DNA from: an uncultured Gammaproteobacteria bacterium
GTDB taxonomy: Bacteria; Pseudomonadota; Gammaproteobacteria; Steroidobacterales; Rariloculaceae
NCBI GenBank assembly: GCA_963782445.1
Contig: CAWAJM010000001.1
Coordinates: 2,854,179 to 2,918,178 of the forward strand
Direction: 5' to 3'
Length of the DNA stretch: 64,000 bases
Positions 350 to 64,000 of the stretch are shown in pieces. How positions within the stretch are numbered: position 1 is the first letter of the stretch; every line of letters begins with the position of its first letter. Under the pieces are notes generated by a model. The model was not told the DNA's origin. It did not search any database and was given only the letters and a program-made list of their open reading frames with translations. Position numbers and translations under genes: made by a program.

Positions 350-2779
350 TTACCTATGCCGGGATTGTGCGTCGAGGCGCGTGCGTGGGTAAGCCCCGCC
401 GAGCAGGGCGAGCAGGCTCAGCAACCCGGCTCCGCCGCCGCCCCCGCCGCCGGCCGGGGCCTTAGCCTCGACATGCACGGTGCGGGAGACGGGCGCCGCG
501 GCGTTGCCCGCGCTGTCGACGGCGTTGTAGGTCACGGTATAGGTGCCGATGAGCTGCGTGTCGACGCTGCCGTCCGCGGTCGGGGTCAGCTTGCCGTCGA
601 CGTTGTCGGTCGCGACGGCTCCGGGATCGTGGTACGGCTCGTCGACCTGGACCGTCATGTCGGCCGGCCCGACGAGCGAGATGACGGGCGGGCTCGTGTC
701 GCCGAGCCCGAAATGTCCCTGGCCGTCGTTGAAGAACACAGCCGTGCCGTGTTTGCCTGTGACGACGAGGTCGGGCGCCTTGCCGGCGCCGAGGTGCGCG
801 AAGGCGGCGCCCGCGGGGTCGGGACTCGTGAACAGGCTCGGATCGAGCGCGAAGGCGCCCGTGCCATCCCCTTTGAAGACCTCGTCGACGCCGGTCGCGC
901 CGATCGTCACGATGTCCGCGGCCCCGTCGCCGTTCACGTCGCCCGCGAGCACGGCGACGGTTGGGGCCGCGCCGAGCGCGGCGCCCTGCGAGAAGCCGCC
1001 GTGGCCGTCCCCGAGCCACACGAGGTCCGAGGGCACGCCGTCGGCGGTGCCCGGCGCCGTGCGCGCGAAGACGAGATCCGGGAAGCCGTCGCCGTTGAAG
1101 TCCGCGCTCGCGACGGCCGTCGTCGGCCCCGTGACCAGGGCGGCCGCGGGCGCGAAGGCGCCGCCGCCGCGATTCAAGTAGAGCTGCGCGGCGCCGTCCG
1201 CGTTCGCGAAGACGAGGTCCAGGCGGCCGTCGCCGTCGGCGTCGAGCAGCGCGACGCCGCGGCTGTCGAGCGCCGGCCCGTCGAGCGCCGGAGCGGCTGC
1301 GAAACCCGTGCCGCCCCGGTTCAGCAGAACTTCGTTCGCGCCGCGATTCGCGAACACGAGGTCCGCGAACCCGTCACCGTCGAAGTCGCCGGCCGCGACG
1401 GCCTGACCGCCGCCCCCGGGCAGCACGGGACCGGGCTGCATGGCGCCGTTACCGGCGTTCGTGAAAGCCGCATTCGTTCCGGCGGCACCCCCCGCAAGCG
1501 CGATATCGAGGTCGCCGTCGTTGTCGAGATCGGCCAGCGTGAGGCCGCGGCCGCCGGCGTCGAGGGAGAGCGGCACCGCCGAAAGTCCCCGCCGGTCGGC
1601 GGCCGGCGCGAGGGCCGACGCGATCTCGGCCGGGCCCGCGACGTCGAGGCGCAGCTCGGTCGGCGAGCCCGCGCCCGTCGCAATGGCCGCGTCCGCGAAG
1701 CCGTCCCCGTCGAGGTCGCCGGCCGCCACGGCCTGGCCCGCGGTGCCCCCGAGCGCTTGGGCCGGCACGCTCGAGACGGCGCCGCCGACCCCGAGGCTCG
1801 CCGCGGCCGCGGCGTCGGCGGCGTTCGCATCGAGCGGCCCGTCCGCCGCCGCGGCGACACGCGCCGCGACGTAGACGTTGCCGGGCTCGCCCGCGGTCGC
1901 CTTCAGCGTCACCGCAACGGACTGACCGGCGGCCAGCGGCCCGAGCGTGCAGTCGAAATGCCGGGCATCCGTGGACGGCGTGCAGTCGCCCGCGTCGACC
2001 TGCATCGCCTGGCCGCGGAAGTCGACGCCGAGCACGGCCGAGTTCGCGGCGTCGGGGCCGGCATTGGCGAGCGTGAACGTCCAGGTCACGGCGGCGCCCG
2101 TCAGGGCCGGATTGGGCGCGGCCTCGATCTTTTCGATAGAGAGATCGGCGCGCGCGAGGGCCCGGACCGTCAGCGTGAAGCGGTCGCTGACGCGCCCGCC
2201 GCGACCGTCGTCGGCCGTGATCGTCACCGCATAGGGCGAGCCCGCGGCGTCGCTTTGCGAAGGCGTCGCCGCGAGCCGGCCGGCCGCGAGCGACCAGCCG
2301 GGCGGCAGCCCCGCGGCCGTGAACGTCAGCGCGTCGCCGTCCGGGTCGCTGAACGCGGCGCTCACGTCCAGCGCGAACGGCGCGCCCTCGACAGCCGTCT
2401 GGTCGGCCAGCCCCGGGGCGACGACCACGGGCGGGGCATTCGGCACGATGGTGATATCGAAACTCTGATCCTGATAGCAGAACAGGAAGAAGAAGCGGCA
2501 GGTCGAATCCTGCTCGAGCAGCTCGACGTGCCCGTCCGTATCGCCGGGCCCCGGGGTGCCGCTGAGGCGCGCCGTGCCGTCCCCCGTCGGGGTCAGCGTC
2601 AACCAGGGCGGCAGACCGTTGGGCGCCGTGATGTCGACGCGCCCGCGCCCGCTCGCCCGCACGTCATAGACGTACGGCCGGCCCACGTACGCGGTCGTGA
2701 CCGGCGCGCTGTCGAAGCCCGCAAATGCCCGCGGCGCCGCAAGCGCCAGCGCCAGGACCGTCCAGTGGAAGCGCCCCAT
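350..2779 (-). CDS. Large secreted FG-GAP/VCBS-repeat surface protein with cadherin-like, DUF11-like and Ig-like (DUF5011/HYR-like) domains and a GlyGly-CTERM-like tail
   Basis: Part of ORF 350..3070. I place the start at ATG 2779 (MGRFHWTVLALALAAPRAFAG, a signal peptide). It has repeated xDxDGDGxxDLV motifs (AAGDLDGDGFADAAIA, LADLDNDGDLDIALA, AAGDFDGDGFADLVFAN, LLDADGDGRLDLVFAN, SADFNGDGFPDLVFA, LAGDVNGDGAADIVT). A dystroglycan/cadherin-like block is present (FSDPDGDALTFTAAGLPPGWSL). The C-terminus is GGGGGGGAGLLSLLALLGGAYPRTR. Confidence 0.75.
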   Translation of the reverse strand: MGRFHWTVLALALAAPRAFAGFDSAPVTTAYVGRPYVYDVRASGRGRVDITAPNGLPPWLTLTPTGDGTARLSGTPGPGDTDGHVELLEQDSTCRFFFLFCYQDQSFDITIVPNAPPVVVAPGLADQTAVEGAPFALDVSAAFSDPDGDALTFTAAGLPPGWSLAAGRLAATPSQSDAAGSPYAVTITADDGRGGRVSDRFTLTVRALARADLSIEKIEAAPNPALTGAAVTWTFTLANAGPDAANSAVLGVDFRGQAMQVDAGDCTPSTDARHFDCTLGPLAAGQSVAVTLKATAGEPGNVYVAARVAAAADGPLDANAADAAAAASLGVGGAVSSVPAQALGGTAGQAVAAGDLDGDGFADAAIATGAGSPTELRLDVAGPAEIASALAPAADRRGLSAVPLSLDAGGRGLTLADLDNDGDLDIALAGGAAGTNAAFTNAGNGAMQPGPVLPGGGGQAVAAGDFDGDGFADLVFANRGANEVLLNRGGTGFAAAPALDGPALDSRGVALLDADGDGRLDLVFANADGAAQLYLNRGGGAFAPAAALVTGPTTAVASADFNGDGFPDLVFARTAPGTADGVPSDLVWLGDGHGGFSQGAALGAAPTVAVLAGDVNGDGAADIVTIGATGVDEVFKGDGTGAFALDPSLFTSPDPAGAAFAHLGAGKAPDLVVTGKHGTAVFFNDGQGHFGLGDTSPPVISLVGPADMTVQVDEPYHDPGAVATDNVDGKLTPTADGSVDTQLIGTYTVTYNAVDSAGNAAAPVSRTVHVEAKAPAGGGGGGGAGLLSLLALLGGAYPRTRLDAQSRHR

Positions 2780-2909
2780 CTCGTCATTGTTCTCGATGCC
2801 GCAAGCACCGCTGCAAGGAGCGTGCCACGCGAGCACGCGACCCCGCCTGGACAGGCCCTGCCGCAGACTCGAAACTGGCTCGGACTCAAAGTCGACCGGA
2901 GCCCGACCG

Positions 2910-3689
2910 ATGCGAAGACGCGCTTCCCCCTTCCTGCTCGCAGCGCTTGCGCTGACCGCCCTGACCGCCGCGGCGGCCCGCGCCGACACGGCCTCCGTCG
3001 CCGTCGCCGCCAACTTCAGCGCGACGCTCGATGCGCTCGCCGCGAAGTTCGAGCAGGTCGCGCGGCACAAACTGCGGATCTCCGCGGGCTCGACGGGTCA
3101 GCTCTATGCGCAGATCACGAAAGGCGCGCCCTTCAACGTCTTCCTCGCCGCCGACGAGCGCCGCCCGAAGCTCCTGGCGCGGGAGGAACTCGGCGATACG
3201 CGCACGCGCTTCACGTATGCCGTCGGCCGGCTCGTGCTCTGGACGAATCAGGTGGACAAGTACCCGAAGCTCGATCTCGCCGTGCTGCGCACCGACCGCT
3301 TCCGCTGGCTCGCCATCGCGAACCCGAAGCTCGCGCCCTACGGGGCGGCGGCGCAGCAGACGCTGCAACGTCTCGGCCTCTGGAAATCGCTCGCGAAGCG
3401 AATCGTGCAGGGGCAAAACATTACGCAGGCATTCGCGATGACCGAGAGCCGCAGCGCCGACCTCGGCCTCGTCGCGCTCTCGCAGGCCGTGAACTACACG
3501 GACAAGGCAACCTATGTCGAAGTGCCGGCGGACATGTATGCGCCGATCCGTCAGGACGCGATCCTGCTCGAGCACGGCCGCGGCAATCGCGCCGCCGTCG
3601 CCTTCCTGAAGTTTCTGGCCGGCCCGGATGCCAGGGCCATCATCGAGAAGTTCGGTTACGAGGTGCCGGCGACGGAGCCGCCGCCCTGA
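2910..3689 (+). CDS. modA: Molybdate ABC transporter periplasmic substrate-binding protein
   Basis: Part of ORF 2697..3689. The start is ATG 2910 (MRRRASPFLLAALALTALTAAAARA, a signal peptide). ModA-like blocks include VAVAANFSATLDALAAKFE, ISAGSTGQLYAQITKGAPFNVFLAAD, RWLAIANPKLAPYGAAAQQTL and ADLGLVALSQ. No modB or modC is adjacent. Confidence 0.8.
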   Translation: MRRRASPFLLAALALTALTAAAARADTASVAVAANFSATLDALAAKFEQVARHKLRISAGSTGQLYAQITKGAPFNVFLAADERRPKLLAREELGDTRTRFTYAVGRLVLWTNQVDKYPKLDLAVLRTDRFRWLAIANPKLAPYGAAAQQTLQRLGLWKSLAKRIVQGQNITQAFAMTESRSADLGLVALSQAVNYTDKATYVEVPADMYAPIRQDAILLEHGRGNRAAVAFLKFLAGPDARAIIEKFGYEVPATEPPP

Positions 3690-4896: not shown

Positions 4897-6348
4897 GTGT
4901 ACCGTCCGCGCTCGATCGTCAGACTGATCCTGATCGGCTTCGCCGTCGTCATGGCGCCGCTCATCGCCGCCGTGATCACGGCCGTGATTCAAGTCGACAG
5001 TCTCGCGCAGGACAGCCGCGCCGCGCTCATAGAAGGCGAGATCGGCATCCAGCAGAGCCGCTCGCTCGTCGAGCAGCTCATCGAGATGCAGCGAGCGCTG
5101 ACGCAGTTTCAAGTGCTCAAGGACGCGGACTTCCACGAGAATTATCTCGAGCGCCGGCGCGTGTTCCTCAACGCCGTCGAGAACCTCTCCGAGCTCAAGC
5201 TCACGAAGCTCGGCCGGCAACAGTTGGAGAGCCTGAAGAACGAGGAGCGCGCGCTCTTCGAGAAGCTGCACACCCCGTCGGGGCAGCCCGCCGCCACGCT
5301 CGCGAAAGACAACAAACCTGCCGTTTGGGCGGATCTCACGAACAAGGCCCGCACGGTGCTCTCCGAGAGCAGCCGGCTCATCGAGAGCGAGGTGGACGCG
5401 ACGACGGCCCGCGCGGGAATCATGCAGCGCACGCTGCTGCTGCAGGCGGCGGCCGTGATCCCGGCGGCCATCGTCCTCGCGGCGCTCGCCGTCGGGCTCA
5501 TCGTGCGCCCGCTGCGGGAGGTGGACCAGGCCATCCGGCGGCTCGGTGCGCGCGAGTTCGCGGCCCCGATCGAAGTCCACGGCCCGCGCGACCTCGAGGC
5601 GCTGGGCCGCCAGCTCGACTGGCTGCGCCTGCGCATTCAGGAGCTCGAGCGGCAGAAGATCAACTTCTTGAGGCATATCTCCCACGAGCTCAAGACGCCC
5701 CTCACGACGATCCGCGAGGGCTCGGAGCTGCTGGCGGAAAGCCTCGAAACCGGCTCCCCGGAGGAGGCGGAGATTTCGAGAATCATCTGCTCCAACAGTC
5801 TGCACCTGCAGAAGCTCATCGAGGACCTGCTGCAGTTCGGCAAGACGGCCGAGCTCGTCTCGGACCTCCGCATCCTCGATTCCGTCGACCTGCAGGCCGT
5901 CGTGCGCCAGGTCGTGGCGACCCAGGCCCTGGCTTCGGCCTCCAAGGTCCTGAGGATCGAGGAAGACCTCGCGCCCGTACGGATTCGCGGCGACGAGAAT
6001 AAGCTTAGAATAGTCGCCGACAACCTGCTGACGAATGCCGTCAAATACACGCCCGCCGGCGGACGGGTAGCGGTTACACTGGCGGCGCACGACGGCTATG
6101 CATTCGTCGACGTGCGCGATACGGGGCCAGGCGTAGCGGAGTCGGAAAAGCAAAAGATCTTCGAACCTTTCCAGCAAGGCCAGGCGGAATACCAATCGAG
6201 CGTCAAAGGAACCGGCCTCGGTCTGGCGATTGCCAGGGAATACGTGGAGGCCCACGATGGGTACATTGAGGTCGTCGATTCAAGCGAAGGCGCCCACTTC
6301 CGCGCCGCCTTCCCGATTGCTGGGCCGAAGCGGTTCGCGGCGGCTTAA
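4897..6348 (+). CDS. Membrane sensor histidine kinase (HAMP-HisKA-HATPase), GlrK/QseE-like by synteny
   Basis: ORF 4774..6348. The likely start is GTG 4897, with GGAG 7 nt upstream, but ATG 4774 is possible. It has TM segments (IVRLILIGFAVVMAPLIAAV and LLLQAAAVIPAAIVLAALAVGLIV), an H-box FLRHISHELKTPLT, an N-box LLTNAVKYTP, and G-boxes DTGPGV and GTGLGLAI. Confidence 0.75.
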   Translation: MYRPRSIVRLILIGFAVVMAPLIAAVITAVIQVDSLAQDSRAALIEGEIGIQQSRSLVEQLIEMQRALTQFQVLKDADFHENYLERRRVFLNAVENLSELKLTKLGRQQLESLKNEERALFEKLHTPSGQPAATLAKDNKPAVWADLTNKARTVLSESSRLIESEVDATTARAGIMQRTLLLQAAAVIPAAIVLAALAVGLIVRPLREVDQAIRRLGAREFAAPIEVHGPRDLEALGRQLDWLRLRIQELERQKINFLRHISHELKTPLTTIREGSELLAESLETGSPEEAEISRIICSNSLHLQKLIEDLLQFGKTAELVSDLRILDSVDLQAVVRQVVATQALASASKVLRIEEDLAPVRIRGDENKLRIVADNLLTNAVKYTPAGGRVAVTLAAHDGYAFVDVRDTGPGVAESEKQKIFEPFQQGQAEYQSSVKGTGLGLAIAREYVEAHDGYIEVVDSSEGAHFRAAFPIAGPKRFAAA

Positions 6349-19397: not shown

Positions 19398-19571
19398 GCG
19401 GCGCGTGCGGGTAGCCCGCATGATTCACGAACGGGCTTGGCGCGGGGGGGTTGTCGGAGGCTCGTGCTGCCACGGCGCGAGGAGATTGGCGGGGCGAAGA
19501 CCGTAACCCTGGCGGCTGCAGCAGACCCCGGCCCGGGCGCTCTTCGGCGGCTATAGCCAGCCCGGTATCCA

Positions 19572-19694
19572 GGCTTCAGGCTGCTCGTCGTAAGGGCGGT
19601 GTCGGGACGCTGAGCGCCAGGGATGGCGCTCAGCGAGCGCCCAGGGACGGGTTCACGGCGGTCCCGACACCGCCCTTACGACGAGCCTGAAGCC
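19572..19694 (+). repeat. Nested-palindrome intergenic repeat, copy 1 (full length)
   Basis: The outer arm GGCTTCAGGCTGCTCGTCGTAAGGGCGGTGTCGGGAC pairs with GTCCCGACACCGCCCTTACGACGAGCCTGAAGCC. The inner hairpin is GCTGAGCGCC-aggga-TGGCGCTCAGC. An asymmetric core, GAGCGCCCAGGGACGGGTTCACGGCG, sets the orientation. It lies between the convergent CBS and kinase genes. Confidence 0.85.
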
Positions 19695-27760: not shown

Positions 27761-27804
27761 TTCCCGCCGTTGGCGGCAGGCCGCCGACGGCCATCGCCAT
27801 ACCA

Positions 27805-27924
27805 GGCGGAGGCTTGTGCGTAAGGGCGGTGTCGGGACGCTGAGCGCCACGGAGGGCGCTCAGCGAGCCCCCAGGGACGGGTTCACGGCGGCCCCGACAC
27901 CGCCCTTACGCACAAGCCTCCGCC
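27805..27924 (+). repeat. Nested-palindrome intergenic repeat, copy 2 (full length, same orientation as copy 1)
   Basis: GGCGGAGGCTTGTGCGTAAGGGCGGTGTCGGGAC ... GCTGAGCGCC-acggag-GGCGCTCAGC ... GCCCCGACACCGCCCTTACGCACAAGCCTCCGCC. The outer arms differ from copy 1 but remain self-complementary. Confidence 0.85.
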
Positions 27925-28035
27925 TGCCACCGACGTCTCCGCGCCGATGCCTCCGCCCGCGCCCGAAGGTTGACGCCGTCGCCGCCCCCGTCGAAGAATG
28001 CCCGAACAACGAGAACGACACCGGAAGGAAACCCA

Positions 28036-53527: not shown

Positions 53528-53691
53528 TAGTGGCCTGTAACGGCTGATTCGGTAGCGCCTGAACGCGTCTGGCGCGCCGGTGCCGCGTTGCTCGTCGTCG
53601 CCATAGTCACCACTATACCTCCTCCTCGCGCCTTGCCCCGACGCGCCATCCATCGCTCAGCCACTACCGAATCAGCCGTTACAGGCCACTA
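53528..53691. mobile_element. MITE-like element: perfect 28-bp terminal inverted repeats around a 108-bp non-coding core
   Basis: TAGTGGCCTGTAACGGCTGATTCGGTAG at 53528..53555 is the exact reverse complement of 53664..53691. The outermost TA on each side could be a TA target duplication. There is no ORF inside. Confidence 0.55.
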
Positions 53692-57179: not shown

Positions 57180-57228
57180 GCTTCAGGCTCGGCGCAAGGG
57201 CGGCGGCGGGACCGCCGTGAACCCGTCC
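57180..57228 (-). repeat. Nested-palindrome repeat, truncated copy 3 (one arm plus part of core)
   Basis: GCTTCAGGCTCGGCGCAAGGGCGGCGGCGGGACCGCCGTGAACCCGTCC aligns with the first 50 nt of copy 4. The inner hairpin and second arm are missing. Confidence 0.6.
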
Positions 57229-57251
57229 ATGAATCATGCGGAATCGTAGCC

Positions 57252-60870: not shown

Positions 60871-63009
60871 CTATTTCTGTTTTGCGGACCTCGTGAAGTC
60901 CGGCTGCCAATCCTCCTGGGCGCGCGAGATCAGAAAGGCGTGGATGGCTTCCGCCTGTGCCTTGCTGAGCCGGTCTCCAAAGCTCGGCATGCCGGCCTTG
61001 GCGCGCTTACCGCCCAGCACGATATCGAGAAACTCGGCATGCGCGGCCTGCGTCATGTGGCGTAGATCCTTGGCTCCGCCGATCGCATTCGGGCCGTGGC
61101 AGGTCTGGCAGTTGGCGGCGTAGAGCGTCGAGCCCCTCTCGACGTCCTCGGGCGACTCCTGCACGCTCGGCGGCGCCGGAATCGCGGACGAGGGTGTCGC
61201 GGGCGGCAGCTCGACGCCCTTGGCATCTAGCGCGAATACCATGAGCCGCGCCGGCGCGTAGCTGAACGCGCTGCCGTCGGGGTTGGTCAGATTGGAGACG
61301 ATAGCGCTGTTCCAGCCGACGTTGACGGCGATGTATTGCTTACCGTCGACCGTATAGGTCATGGGCCCGGCGACAGGCACGCTCTCCACGGGCATTTCCC
61401 AGAGTTTCTTGCCGTTGTCTGCCCGGTAGACGGCGAGCGTTTTGTTGATCGTGCCCTCGACGAGCAGATTCCCGGCCGTGACGAGCGTGCCGCCGTCGCC
61501 CGCATGCGGATACGGGATCCGGAACGCCTCCTTCTGGCGCACCGGATCCCAGGCCAGCATGTAGCCCTTCTCGCGGCGCGCCGCCTCCGCGTAGAGCTTC
61601 TTCCTGAGCTCGGGATAGTTATTCGTCGCGGCGTTGAGCGTCGTGCGGCCGAGCACGAATTTGAACTGGTCGGCCGGCACGACGGACTCGACCATCCAGC
61701 CTTCCATGAGCGGTATGTACACCAAGCCCGTCAGCGGGCTGAAGGCCATCGGGTTCCAGCTGTGACCGCCCCCGTATCCGGGCGTCATGAGGTGCGGCTT
61801 CTCTTTGACGTAGGCATCCGGATTGATGACCGGCCGCCCGGTCTTCATGTCGACGCGCGAAGCCCACGTGTTGGGAATGTAATTCTTGGCCGACAGCAGC
61901 TCACCGGTTTCCCGGTCGAGCACATAGAAAAAACCGTCCTTCGGCGCCTGCATGATGACCTTGCGCATGCGCCCGCGGATTTTTAGATCGGCCTGGATCA
62001 GCGGCGCCGTGCAGTCGTAGTCCCACTCTTCGGCGGGAATCTCCTGATAGTGCCAGCGATAATGCCCCGTGCGCGCGTCGACGGCGACGATGGAGCACAG
62101 GAACAGATTGTCTCCGCCGCCCGGGCTGCGAAACTTAGCGGGGTGCGGCGAGCCGTTACCGGTGCCGAAATAGACCAAGTTGAGATCGGGATCGTAGGCG
62201 ATGGCATCCCAGTCGTTGCCGCCCCCGCCCATCTTCCACCACTCGCCGCTCCAGGTCTTGGCCGCCATCGGCATGACCGAGTCGGACGCCGCGCCTTCCG
62301 GCATCTTTTTCGGATCGCCCGGAACGATATAAAACTTCCAGGCCAGCTTGCCGGTATCGGCATCCCAGGCGGACATGTAACCGCGCGAGCCGAAGTCGCC
62401 GCCGCCGTTGCCGATCACGACGTTGCCGTCGGCGATGCGCGGCGCGCCCGTGATGGACAGCGGTTGGCCGGGGTCCTTCGTGTCGGCGGACCACACTACC
62501 TTGCCGGTCCGCGCATCGAGCGCGATGAGCCGCCCGTCGAGCGCGCCGAGGATGATCTTGCCGTGCCACGCGACCAGCCCGCGGCTCACGGGCCCGCAGC
62601 ACGCGATGCGCGCATACGCGGCCGGCACCTTGGGATCGTAGGTCCACAGGACCTTGCCCGTGACCGCATCGTACGCGGTCACGATGCTCCAAGCGGAGAC
62701 GTTGTAGAGGACACCGTCGATCATGAGCGGCGTCGCCTCGACGCCGCGATAGGTATTGAGATCGGCATACCAGGCCAGTCCGAGGCGCTGGACGTTGCTG
62801 GCATCGATCTGCTTCAGGGGGCTGAACCGCTGCTCTTTCCAGCTCCGGCCGACCTCCATCCACTGGCCGGGCTCCCGATCGGCATGCTCGAATCGCGCCT
62901 GATCGACGGCGGCCGCATGCCCGACCCCGTCCGCCCGGGCCGGACCGGCCAAGGTCCCGGCGACGCCGAGCAGCAGCCCCAAGATCAGAATGCGTTTCCG
63001 TTCAAACAT
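60871..63009 (-). CDS. Quinohemoprotein PQQ-dependent alcohol dehydrogenase (type II, with C-terminal cytochrome c domain)
   Basis: Part of ORF 60871..63024. The start is ATG 63009 after GGGAGAGG. A signal peptide is present. It has W-motif propeller repeats and the vicinal Cys pair IACCGPVSRG. It also has GGGNDWDAIAYDP and a C-terminal heme motif CQTCHG. Confidence 0.85.
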   Translation of the reverse strand: MFERKRILILGLLLGVAGTLAGPARADGVGHAAAVDQARFEHADREPGQWMEVGRSWKEQRFSPLKQIDASNVQRLGLAWYADLNTYRGVEATPLMIDGVLYNVSAWSIVTAYDAVTGKVLWTYDPKVPAAYARIACCGPVSRGLVAWHGKIILGALDGRLIALDARTGKVVWSADTKDPGQPLSITGAPRIADGNVVIGNGGGDFGSRGYMSAWDADTGKLAWKFYIVPGDPKKMPEGAASDSVMPMAAKTWSGEWWKMGGGGNDWDAIAYDPDLNLVYFGTGNGSPHPAKFRSPGGGDNLFLCSIVAVDARTGHYRWHYQEIPAEEWDYDCTAPLIQADLKIRGRMRKVIMQAPKDGFFYVLDRETGELLSAKNYIPNTWASRVDMKTGRPVINPDAYVKEKPHLMTPGYGGGHSWNPMAFSPLTGLVYIPLMEGWMVESVVPADQFKFVLGRTTLNAATNNYPELRKKLYAEAARREKGYMLAWDPVRQKEAFRIPYPHAGDGGTLVTAGNLLVEGTINKTLAVYRADNGKKLWEMPVESVPVAGPMTYTVDGKQYIAVNVGWNSAIVSNLTNPDGSAFSYAPARLMVFALDAKGVELPPATPSSAIPAPPSVQESPEDVERGSTLYAANCQTCHGPNAIGGAKDLRHMTQAAHAEFLDIVLGGKRAKAGMPSFGDRLSKAQAEAIHAFLISRAQEDWQPDFTRSAKQK

Positions 63010-63110
63010 CCGCCTCTCCCCCATGCACGATGGCGATATTTTGACCGAACTCGCGCGGAAACGCCCGCATGCGGCACGGACGCGTTGGTGGCGGGTTTCA
63101 GATGGTGGCG

Positions 63111-63230
63111 GGCTTCAGGCTCGACGCAAGGGCGGTGTCGGGACCGCCGTGAACCCGTCCCTGGGGGCTCGCTGACCGCCATCCCTGGCGGTCAGCGTCC
63201 CGACACCGCCCTTGCGTCGAGCCTGAAGCC
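63111..63230 (-). repeat. Nested-palindrome intergenic repeat, copy 4 (full length, inverted relative to copies 1 and 2)
   Basis: GGCTTCAGGCTCGACGCAAGGGCGGTGTCGGGAC-CGCCGTGAACCCGTCCCTGGGGGCTC-GCTGACCGCC-atccct-GGCGGTCAGC-GTCCCGACACCGCCCTTGCGTCGAGCCTGAAGCC. It is preceded by a small local duplication, GGTGGCGGGTTTCAG / GGTGGCGGGCTTCAG. Confidence 0.85.
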
Positions 63231-63356
63231 AGAGACGGAGGCGGCCATCGCCGTTGAAGGCCGCACGGACTAGCGTCTTCGCGCCAGCGATCTCCTCGCG
63301 CCGTGGCAGCAGGATGCATGAACGGCCACCGCCGTCACAGAGGAGGCGCGTGCGGG

Positions 63357-64000
63357 CTAAGGCACTGCCGGAGGCAGCAACGCCGGGCGATCCTTCGGCA
63401 AGTGCTGGTCGACGGCCGTCAGCACCATGCCGACCATGACGTAGTCGCCCATCACCGTTACGAGCTCGACCGTCCCCGTCCTGCCGAAACGCTGCACGGC
63501 TTCCGCGAACAGGTTCGAGTCGAGCTGATGCTCGCGCATGAGCTGGCGGCCCAGCTTGATGATCAGCGTCTCATCGGCAGGCAGGCCGACCGGCGCGCGG
63601 TCGTACTTGATCGTATCCACGACGGCCTGTGGCACGCCGAAACGCAGGGCTGCGGGTTCGTGCGCCGAATACTCGTATTGCTGCTCGATCTCGCGCGTCG
63701 CGACGAGGATGGCCGTTTCGGTCAGACGAGGGCTCAGCTTGCCGTGGTAGCGGAGGAAGCCGTTCAGGTCGTTGAAGGCGGCGGCGATCTTCGGACTGTA
63801 GAGCGAGACGGCAACGGGACCCGTCGTCGGCACGGGGCCGTCGCCGACGATGCGATCGTAGACGGCCTTGCCTTCGGCGTCGAGGTCGGCACGCGTAAGC
63901 CGCGGGAGGCGCGTCAGGGAAACCGGGTCGATGTCGAATCCTTTGGAGCGGACGTCCCAGTCCGGATTCTTACAGAGCCCGCAATCCTCGCCGACGAACA
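63357..64000 (-). CDS. Carboxymuconolactone decarboxylase (AhpD-like) family protein; 5' end unresolved and possibly beyond the window
   Basis: The track ORF 63357..63833 starts at a GTG. The frame stays open to the window edge, and the upstream residues (LTRLPRLTRADLDAEGKAVYDRIVGDGP) look like the usual CMD N-terminus. The core has LSPRLTETAILVATREIEQQYEYSAHEPAAL. Confidence 0.6.
   Translation of the reverse strand, partial: FVGEDCGLCKNPDWDVRSKGFDIDPVSLTRLPRLTRADLDAEGKAVYDRIVGDGPVPTTGPVAVSLYSPKIAAAFNDLNGFLRYHGKLSPRLTETAILVATREIEQQYEYSAHEPAALRFGVPQAVVDTIKYDRAPVGLPADETLIIKLGRQLMREHQLDSNLFAEAVQRFGRTGTVELVTVMGDYVMVGMVLTAVDQHLPKDRPALLPPAVP

Follow-up and report, generated by a model that had tools for sequence, protein, structure and literature searches.

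A dispersed hairpin repeat of Gammaproteobacteria with variable arms and a conserved core that resembles a dual CsrA/RsmA-binding site

The subject of this analysis is a 120-nucleotide (nt) inverted repeat at positions 63111..63230, here called copy 4, in a 64,000-nt stretch of the genome of an uncultured gammaproteobacterium (family Rariloculaceae, contig CAWAJM010000001.1); this stretch, referred to as the window, contains three full copies and one half copy of the same element. By comparing these copies with related loci in genome and metagenome collections we established that the element represents a real, widespread and structured family that is under selection for a single-strand fold, and that copy 4 is a clean member of it. 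We read the family as a REP/REPIN-like dispersed element whose core most likely constitutes a dual CsrA/RsmA-binding RNA module.

The family folds into a three-way junction on what we refer to as the sense strand, i.e. the strand that carries GGACGGGTTCACGGCG. The outer clamp helix (P1) comprises 20-40 base pairs (bp) and is nearly always perfect and free in sequence. It encloses a hairpin of ~10 bp (P2), in which the third base is mostly U opposite C or U and tandem G·A pairs are common, a GA linker, and a second hairpin (P3) that is built from two 3-bp helices (P3a, GCC/GGC, and P3b, CCC/GGG) with a hexaloop on P3b and a 5-nt bulge (YTYRC, which is TTCAC in 73 of 111 copies), after which comes the 3' arm of P1. 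In copy 4 the sense strand is the minus strand. The two arms of its P1 (5' arm 63197..63230, 3' arm 63111..63144, each 34 nt long) are 100% complementary and form a perfect 34-bp outer stem with 52 nt in between. P2 is located at 63171..63196 (GCTGACCGCC-AGGGAT-GGCGGTCAGC) and exposes its hexaloop at 63181-63186, closed by a C-G pair (CAGGGATG), whereas P3, at 63146..63168 (GCC CCC AGGGAC GGG TTCAC GGC), consists of 3 bp of P3a, 3 bp of P3b, a hexaloop at 63157-63162 and the 5-nt bulge at 63149-63153. The region has a folding energy of -112.5 kcal/mol (z = -12.5 against shuffles), the covariance models R1 and R2 give the minus strand 110.9 and 102.4 bits, respectively, and the plus strand 31-42 bits, and compared with the family consensus copy 4 contains zero non-standard pairs.

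The initial annotation of the window had pointed out that, between copies 1 and 2 on the one hand and the minus strand of copy 4 on the other, bases in the two arms of the stems have changed together. These double changes are indeed present: in the inner hairpin GCTGAGCGCC/GGCGCTCAGC is replaced by GCTGACCGCC/GGCGGTCAGC, and in the outer stem CGTAAGGG/CCCTTACG by CGCAAGGG/CCCTTGCG and TCGTCG/CGACGA by TCGACG/CGTCGA. Of the 96 core bases that can be aligned, seven distinguish copy 1 from copy 4. Six of these make up three compensated pairs (2/95, 5/92 and 28/43), and the seventh, at position 53, concerns a pair that is intact in copy 4 and broken in copy 1; in a simulation, the probability of obtaining at least three compensated pairs from seven random substitutions was ~3e-6. 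In copy 2 the outer 17 nt of each arm are unrelated in sequence to those of copies 1 and 4 and still 100% complementary. Nor are the double changes isolated coincidences, a reservation that had been attached to the observation, as in an alignment of 94 copies 36 out of 38 pairs are altered on both sides, with covariation at each of the 22 P1 pairs in the model and at each of the 10 pairs of P2. In these two stems it is the pairing alone that is constrained, and not the sequence, so that the changes can be considered compensatory. Template correction from arm to arm within such a close palindrome has probably sped up the fixation of the double changes.

The covariation extends over the entire fold. 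Within the alignment of 94 copies, which was fitted to a model (a caveat that applies to these figures), 92.7% of the cells are paired, versus 56.6% after shuffling and 39-44% when the partners are slid by 1-3 columns, and the covariation score amounts to 0.81, as compared to 0.18 and 0.11-0.14, respectively. Even the short helices of P3 vary in concert (P3b: CCC/GGG, TAC/GTA, TCC/GGA and CAC/GTG; P3a: GCC/GGC, GGC/GCC and GCT/AGC). At two P3b pairs, the search pattern used on the metagenomes permitted 16 combinations, and among the matches listed we counted UA 56, CG 33 and UG 2 for one pair, and CG 47 and AU 44 for the other; because the pattern allowed non-pairing combinations and almost none came back, the covariation of P3b is independent of any model fit. 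The same P3b variants TAC/GTA, TCC/GGA and CAC/GTG favour the 3-bp register with a hexaloop over a register that resembles domain V of group II introns (GAGCCC/GGGUUC). Two other candidate identities were discarded as well: a hammerhead-like CUGA...GAA core in P2 lacks the required A9 and no Rfam ribozyme model matched, and integron attC sites or Tn3-type inverted repeats do not apply to a family without a conserved terminal sequence.

The rare non-Watson-Crick cells in P1 reveal which strand is folded, with 58 G·U versus 6 A·C cells, a pattern that is also visible by eye. Transitions should yield both kinds equally, and the large excess of G·U therefore implies that folding takes place on one strand only. 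This excess is unlikely to stem from a mutational strand bias, because the orientation of the copies is random with respect to genes and to GC skew. In line with this polarity, R2 scores the window copies at 96-102 bits in sense and 31-34 bits in antisense.

The conserved core amounts to ~35 nt and is asymmetric and non-palindromic. In nearly all of the 111 aligned copies the hexaloops of both P2 and P3 conform to C-ANGGAY-G, where the GGA is essentially invariant: the P2 loop is of the CANGGANG type in nearly all copies and the GGA is not intact in a few P2 loops, any of G, U, A or C can occupy the second loop position, and a tolerated 5-nt variant (CAGGACG) is found as well. A distance of 24 nt separates the two GGA triplets, which the P1 clamp keeps together. 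The optimal target of RsmE/CsrA has been formulated as (A/U)CANGGANG(U/A) (Schubert 2007, as cited in PMC6849547 and PMC5864733). Hairpin 2 of RsmZ displays an AAGGAU hexaloop that fits ANGGAN, 5-nt loops are tolerated, and RsmE/CsrA dimers engage tandem GGA motifs with avidity (PMC3791407). A Csr/Rsm-binding RNA has GGA in ANGGAN hairpin loops, with at least two sites within the reach of one dimer, and this is what was found in the family; the loops match the RsmE/CsrA hairpin consensus, and the two small hairpins have precisely the appearance of sites for the global regulator CsrA/RsmA. Moreover, the core is near-identical in hosts from different orders and with a G+C content of 41-79%, and the stems track the composition of the host. 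A near-invariant core between host-adapted stems points to a very conserved host partner, which fits better than a co-evolving transposase.

The family is large. An exact search of the genome collection with 22 nt of the non-palindromic interior yielded 33 loci (four of these, L003, L022, L025 and L032, are chance matches) in Stenotrophomonas (three species), Lysobacteraceae, Steroidobacteraceae, Saccharospirillum and Pseudohongiella, and a single complete chromosome of an uncultured gammaproteobacterium accounts for 13 of the matches. A degenerate pattern recovered at least 120 stretches of DNA from the metagenome collection, and after covariance-model searches the tally reached at least 166 sense-strand copies from hosts with 41-79% G+C. 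Elements are 80-142 nt long (median 111), and their stem sequences vary even among copies within one genome. The window copies belong to one sub-family with those of the uncultured chromosome OY969712.1 (84-96% identity), and the window is not syntenic with any retrieved locus. On a metagenomic contig of 48% G+C (L099 9509-10729, record Ga0209395_1000166) four same-strand copies are arranged in tandem at a spacing of 240-460 nt, from which it follows that the family is not confined to high-G+C hosts and can form arrays. BLAST found no match to the element on plasmids, and viral contigs yielded only 5 hits, which gives no link to phages. In neither the window nor 15 diverse loci did an Rfam 15 family attain its gathering score, and a permissive Rfam search around copy 4 returned only sub-threshold long-hairpin artefacts (e.g. 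VA RNA, a microRNA precursor). In the literature searched there was no paper that contains the core sequence, and none that links CsrA/RsmA to interspersed repeats such as miniature inverted-repeat transposable elements (MITEs), REP or REPIN.

In the loci examined (pieces of at most 15 kb around the copies) all copies are intergenic and lie beside unrelated genes in either orientation. No neighbouring gene family recurs, the largest occurring at 5 of ~150 loci, and no transposase gene adjoins the copies or lies between paired copies in the retrieved pieces; the "pairs" that enclose a gene in L059 and L056 merely flank an eda and a GMC-oxidoreductase gene. Copies are often located 20-60 nt past a stop codon (e.g. 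copy 3, L029, L030 and L007). As classified on the basis of a crude gene caller that uses the G+C content of third codon positions (GC3), 30 single copies lie in sense and 22 in antisense between co-directional genes, 19 in convergent and 6 in divergent intergenic regions. There is no orientation bias with respect to GC skew (40 to 39, a weak test on 8-kb pieces) or to the coding strand (44 to 35). The direct repeats that flank the copies do not exceed in length those of shuffled pairings, so that there is no target-site duplication above chance, and a conserved tetranucleotide of the GTAG type is absent from 154 5' flanks, from 157 3' flanks and from the window copies, with only position -1 of the flanks exceeding ~50% for any base. 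A positional A/T signal indicative of a promoter was not found family-wide.

Most detected copies are single, and each of these already is a complete hairpin. Where inverted pairs occur less than 700 nt apart, 23 out of 23 show the order minus copy, then plus copy (head-to-head), the members of a pair often being of different sub-types (TTCAC versus CTYGC bulge). Remnants of partners are found too: in L052 (4869-4926) a bare P1 hairpin, a decayed partner, lies beside a full copy, and the 55-nt 5' flank that copies 4 and 1 have in common (63260..63314, minus strand, and 19462-19516, respectively; 80% complementary) probably represents what is left of a partner copy in inverted orientation that has collapsed, given its likeness to the start of the outer stem, GGAGGCTCGTGC, of the partner copies in L028 and L021. 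A palindromised variant in L031 (257-344) combines the reverse complement of the P3 core with P2 and the P3 core into one perfect long hairpin. In L028 of OY969712.1 tandem arrays in inverted orientation (5149-5457, a 34-nt unit in 9.1 copies, and 5548-5670, an inverted 33-nt unit in 3.7 copies) bracket the element, and their units include the base of P1; such arrays are also found in the flanks of L012, L020 and L021. On this chromosome a unit of ~0.7 kb, made up of partner copy, spacer, arrays and copy, recurs at several loci. Copy 4 has a modest counterpart. The 15-nt local duplication that had been reported next to it is real (63086..63118; Tandem Repeats Finder gives a period of 17 nt, 1.9 copies and 93% matches) and overlaps the terminal 8-9 nt of the outer stem, i.e. 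the base of P1, and its proposed origin as a slippage scar agrees with the 33-34-nt arrays that L028 has at the equivalent place, the unit of which includes the base of the outer stem: it is small-scale slippage at the foot of the hairpin, as in those arrays. In the spacer between paired copies in Stenotrophomonas indicatrix (L001, ~990-1150) we observed short GTAG-preceded palindromes (GTAGATCCACGCCATGTGTGGATG) that appear to be classical Stenotrophomonas REP (SMAG-type) elements, so that two unrelated repeat families share one intergenic region.

Copy 4 itself is located between two minus-strand genes, and its sense strand is the mRNA strand of both. It starts 127 nt past the stop codon of the upstream open reading frame (63357-63833 or longer, minus strand, without a Pfam match at 1e-5), and 102 nt separate the end of the element from the likely start codon (ATG at 63009, preceded by GGGGGAGAGG) of the downstream gene (60871-63009, minus strand), which encodes a pyrroloquinoline quinone (PQQ)-dependent dehydrogenase with a C-terminal cytochrome c domain; with the longer reading frame, which starts at 63024, the distance to the element is 87 nt. 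Copy 4 may thus be carried in an intercistronic or leader transcript, and read-through or a leader transcript would display the GGA hairpins, the sense strand being the mRNA strand. The distance of about 100 nt given in the initial annotation is accurate, and this position on the gene's own strand is what speaks for a gene-specific promoter or 5' untranslated region (5'-UTR) element that controls the PQQ alcohol dehydrogenase. We consider such a role extremely improbable, and the distribution of the family largely refutes it: the other three window copies lie beside unrelated genes, at least 160 copies elsewhere do so without a recurrent neighbour (the top family being the one at 5 of ~150 loci), the orientation to co-directional flanking genes is mixed (30 sense versus 22 antisense), and neither a sigma-70-like promoter nor a terminator was detected at copy 4. 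Nothing links copy 4 specifically to the dehydrogenase gene.

How, then, would the core act? In the mechanism that we propose, the clamp helix of a transcribed sense strand would hold the GGA hairpins next to each other, so that a single CsrA/RsmA dimer would bind both; at copy 4 the dimer would bind within a transcript that comes from the upstream gene and extends into the PQQ dehydrogenase gene or to a point shortly before it, and the many copies together could titrate CsrA or place host transcripts under Csr control, as decoys or as tethering sites. Of the mechanisms considered, this one, in which RNA of the sense strand would offer CsrA/RsmA two optimal hairpins on a clamp and bind one dimer, has the best support, and we put it forward tentatively. 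Several observations weigh against it. The element has only two GGA sites as compared to the many of known sponge RNAs, and neither CsrB, CsrC, RsmX, RsmY and RsmZ nor any other Rfam family matched. Transcription in sense is not favoured by the location of the copies (30 sense versus 22 antisense between co-directional genes), the structural integrity is equal in sense and antisense contexts, promoter-like signals show no directional excess (12 toward the element versus 11 away from it), and copies 1 and 4 lack a recognisable promoter or terminator. Only 1 of 166 copies has a U tail in sense and 3 of 166 have a T-/A-rich tail in antisense, and the element does not qualify as an intrinsic terminator. 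RNase III would probably cleave an RNA duplex of 34 perfect bp. Finally, at orthologous Stenotrophomonas loci (L015 versus L001) half of one copy has been lost, which implies that individual copies are dispensable. A csrA gene was not found in the window or in the retrieved loci.

The main rival explanation is recognition of single-stranded DNA by a transposase. In that case, the family would be a REP/REPIN-like non-autonomous mobile element, the folded single-stranded core of which, with its two similar small hairpins on one strand, is bound by a trans-acting dimeric HUH/Y1 transposase (RAYT-like or IS200/IS605-like) or another nuclease; the GGA loops would then be determinants of protein recognition that have nothing to do with CsrA, and transcription would be irrelevant. 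We regard this explanation as only a little less probable than the CsrA/RsmA mechanism. The strictly head-to-head arrangement of the close inverted pairs (23 of 23, with further pairs besides), the partner remnants (the solo hairpin of L052, the 5' flanks of copies 1 and 4) and the flanking tandem arrays all fit, as do the random orientation relative to genes and GC skew, an integrity that is independent of the transcription context, and the lack of target-site duplications, which is expected for single-strand transposition. The preference for G·T over A·C is likewise expected from strand-specific folding of single-stranded DNA, and three half copies (copy 3, L015 and L033) break at a near-identical point in the P3 loop. 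What does not fit is that no transposase gene adjoins the copies or lies between them and no neighbour family recurs, that a GTAG-like tetranucleotide is missing at the foot of the hairpin, and that the core is conserved across orders, whereas REP sequences are normally species-specific. In addition, the conserved part is the asymmetric loop and not the arms of the palindrome, the reverse of REPINs, and the copies lack the GC-skew bias of IS200/IS605 (40 to 39, weak evidence on 8-kb pieces). The CsrA and transposase readings are compatible, since one concerns the spread of the copies and the other their role once transcribed. In the most far-reaching reading, the copies would be mobile CsrA/RsmA-decoy cassettes, a genome-wide population of clamp-helix modules with two optimal GGA hairpins each, which spread horizontally as well as vertically and, in many gammaproteobacterial orders, buffer free CsrA or wire transcripts into the Csr regulon; we consider this scenario rather unlikely.

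The remaining explanations require less of the core. A generic RNA hairpin, acting as a barrier to 3' exonucleases, an RNase III site or a decoupler of operon genes (roles known from REP, ERIC and Correia repeats), with a core retained through common descent, would agree with the extremely stable folds, with the intergenic sites often 20-60 nt after a stop codon and with the preference for convergent (19) over divergent (6) intergenic regions. Common descent can, however, not account for a near-invariant core between two stems that are completely replaced from order to order and from one G+C content to another. The polarity seen in P1 (58 G·U versus 6 A·C) is not required of a generic hairpin, and there is neither a U tail nor a sense bias to genes; we hold this explanation to be unlikely. 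Alternatively, there might be no selection on structure at all and the double changes might stem purely from arm-to-arm correction by template switching or gene conversion. The almost always perfect Watson-Crick pairing of P1, with few G·U intermediates, and the existence of the palindromised L031 variant could be taken as signs of such a process, which likely contributes to the perfection of P1. As a sole explanation it is contradicted by the fact that P3a and P3b, short helices with a conserved bulge, covary, by the asymmetry between G·U and A·C and by the conserved non-palindromic core, none of which it can yield, and we judge it very improbable.

The other copies in the window illustrate the range of forms. 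Copy 1 (19572..19694, plus strand, 98.3 bits), beside CBS-domain and histidine kinase genes, deviates by a bulge of 3 nt in P1 and by a G×G mismatch within P3a. Copy 2 (27803..27926, plus strand, 96.4 bits) occupies the gap between a DUF3240 gene and a tannase-family gene. Copy 3 (57180..57231, minus strand) is a half copy, of which only the part between the P3 loop and the end of the 3' arm of P1 is left; its neighbours are a tannase gene and a gene for an AMP-binding enzyme, and it starts 21 nt past the stop codon of the latter. The two tannase/feruloyl-esterase genes (PF07519; 27970-29571 and 55175-57100) are paralogous, with a DNA repeat (D3) that is 73% identical; copy 2 is located just upstream of one paralogue and half copy 3 just downstream of the other. 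Within the sub-family of the window, partner copies are accompanied by a recurrent box, GCATGA(T/C)TCATGAACGG, with a palindrome TTCATGAA, which occurs at 19418-19440, 57228-57245 and 63310-63330 in the window, at 4912-4935 and 5068-5090 in L028, and in L012, L021 and L033. At copy 3 this box abuts the truncated P3 loop (TTCATGGACGG), an arrangement which suggests that recombination of the box with the loop, which is similar in sequence, gave rise to the half copy. The half copies in the window (57228-57231), in L015 (~4165) and in L033 (~6580) start within ~2 nt of one another, just 5' of CA(T/G)GGAC in the P3 loop, and this common start of three independent half copies could be a preferred site of breakage or cleavage.

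Two further repeats in the window deserve mention. At 53528-53691, between divergent genes, there is a long inverted repeat with 38-nt arms (92% complementary, 88 nt in between), the interior of which has a P2-like GCTGAGCGATGGATGGCGCG at its start and GCGTTCAGGCG at its end, similar to GGGTTCACGGCG. R1 assigns 36 bits to its minus strand and the refined model R2 does not match; it may be a strongly diverged or insertion-bearing relative of the element. At 1057-1730 a 59-nt unit occurs four times (spacing 141, 144 and 330 nt, 63-73% identity) inside a minus-strand reading frame (350-3070), and this looks like the coding sequence of a repeat domain and not like a non-coding repeat.

The combination of free arms with a core that is nearly constant across distant Gammaproteobacteria of 41-79% G+C points to a universal partner. 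If this partner is CsrA/RsmA, the family would add a new layer to a main post-transcriptional network and would, to our knowledge, be the first dispersed repeat to act as a Csr-binding module, which is relevant to lineages in which RsmA antagonists are barely known; as decoy cassettes, the copies would supply the Csr antagonists or targets that are poorly known in, for instance, the Xanthomonadales. With a transposase as the partner, the family would represent a novel type of element, one that is recognised in the form of single-stranded DNA. In both cases, a family that is abundant (at least 120 metagenome stretches) is missing from Rfam, and a covariance model is ready for annotation.

With respect to known systems, the element is a bacterial interspersed hairpin repeat of unusual architecture, with variable arms, a conserved three-way-junction core and dual GGA hexaloops, for which no record was found in Rfam 15 or in the literature searched. 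In REPINs/BIMEs the inverted doublet is the unit, compensatory changes are common and singlets are decayed remnants, tandem clusters include the flanks, and one REP strand is recognised (PMC3116915, PMC8266576). The family resembles this REP/BIME/REPIN system (RAYT/TnpA-REP) in its high-copy, GC-rich intergenic palindromes, its fixed inverted doublets and compensatory changes, its singlets that look like decayed doublets, its tandem clusters that comprise flanks, and its presumably strand-specific, single-strand recognition. REPs have a conserved GTAG-type tetranucleotide directly 5' of the palindrome, and their genomes a cognate tnpA-REP gene that REPs usually flank. The family differs in that such a tetranucleotide is lacking and no RAYT gene was seen nearby, in that variation affects the arms and conservation the asymmetric interior, the opposite of REPINs, and in that the core is conserved across orders. 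Furthermore, each unit is a ~110-nt three-way junction, and where a REP has a conserved palindrome of 20-50 nt, the present element measures 80-142 nt and its stems differ within one genome. Unlike a transposase-derived MITE, it has neither arms that are conserved in sequence nor target-site duplications. Interspersed palindromes such as REP, ERIC and Correia are usually species-specific and defined by their arms. Enterobacterial ERIC/IRU and neisserial Correia elements are intergenic repeats of 100-150 nt. Co-transcription turns them into long RNA hairpins that can affect how stable an mRNA is or how it is processed. Their terminal inverted repeats are conserved, they show target-site duplications (TA in the case of Correia), and their taxonomic range is narrow; the family is like them in being intergenic and forming a long hairpin, and we know of no dual GGA-hairpin core in either. 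The Csr/Rsm sponge RNAs (CsrB, CsrC, RsmX, RsmY, RsmZ and RsmU) have in common with the family that GGA is presented in ANGGAN loops closed by C-G (PMC3791407, PMC6849547, PMC5864733, PMC7694677) and that paired sites suit one CsrA/RsmE dimer. In contrast to these RNAs, which are encoded by one to few dedicated genes, the family has only two sites per unit and many dispersed copies, with neither a promoter of its own nor a Rho-independent terminator detected and no match in Rfam. The only RsmA-antagonising RNA reported for Xanthomonas is RsmU, a single 3'-UTR-derived RNA that has been reported in that genus only (PMC7694677), and as a single-locus RNA it is different from the many-copy family described here.

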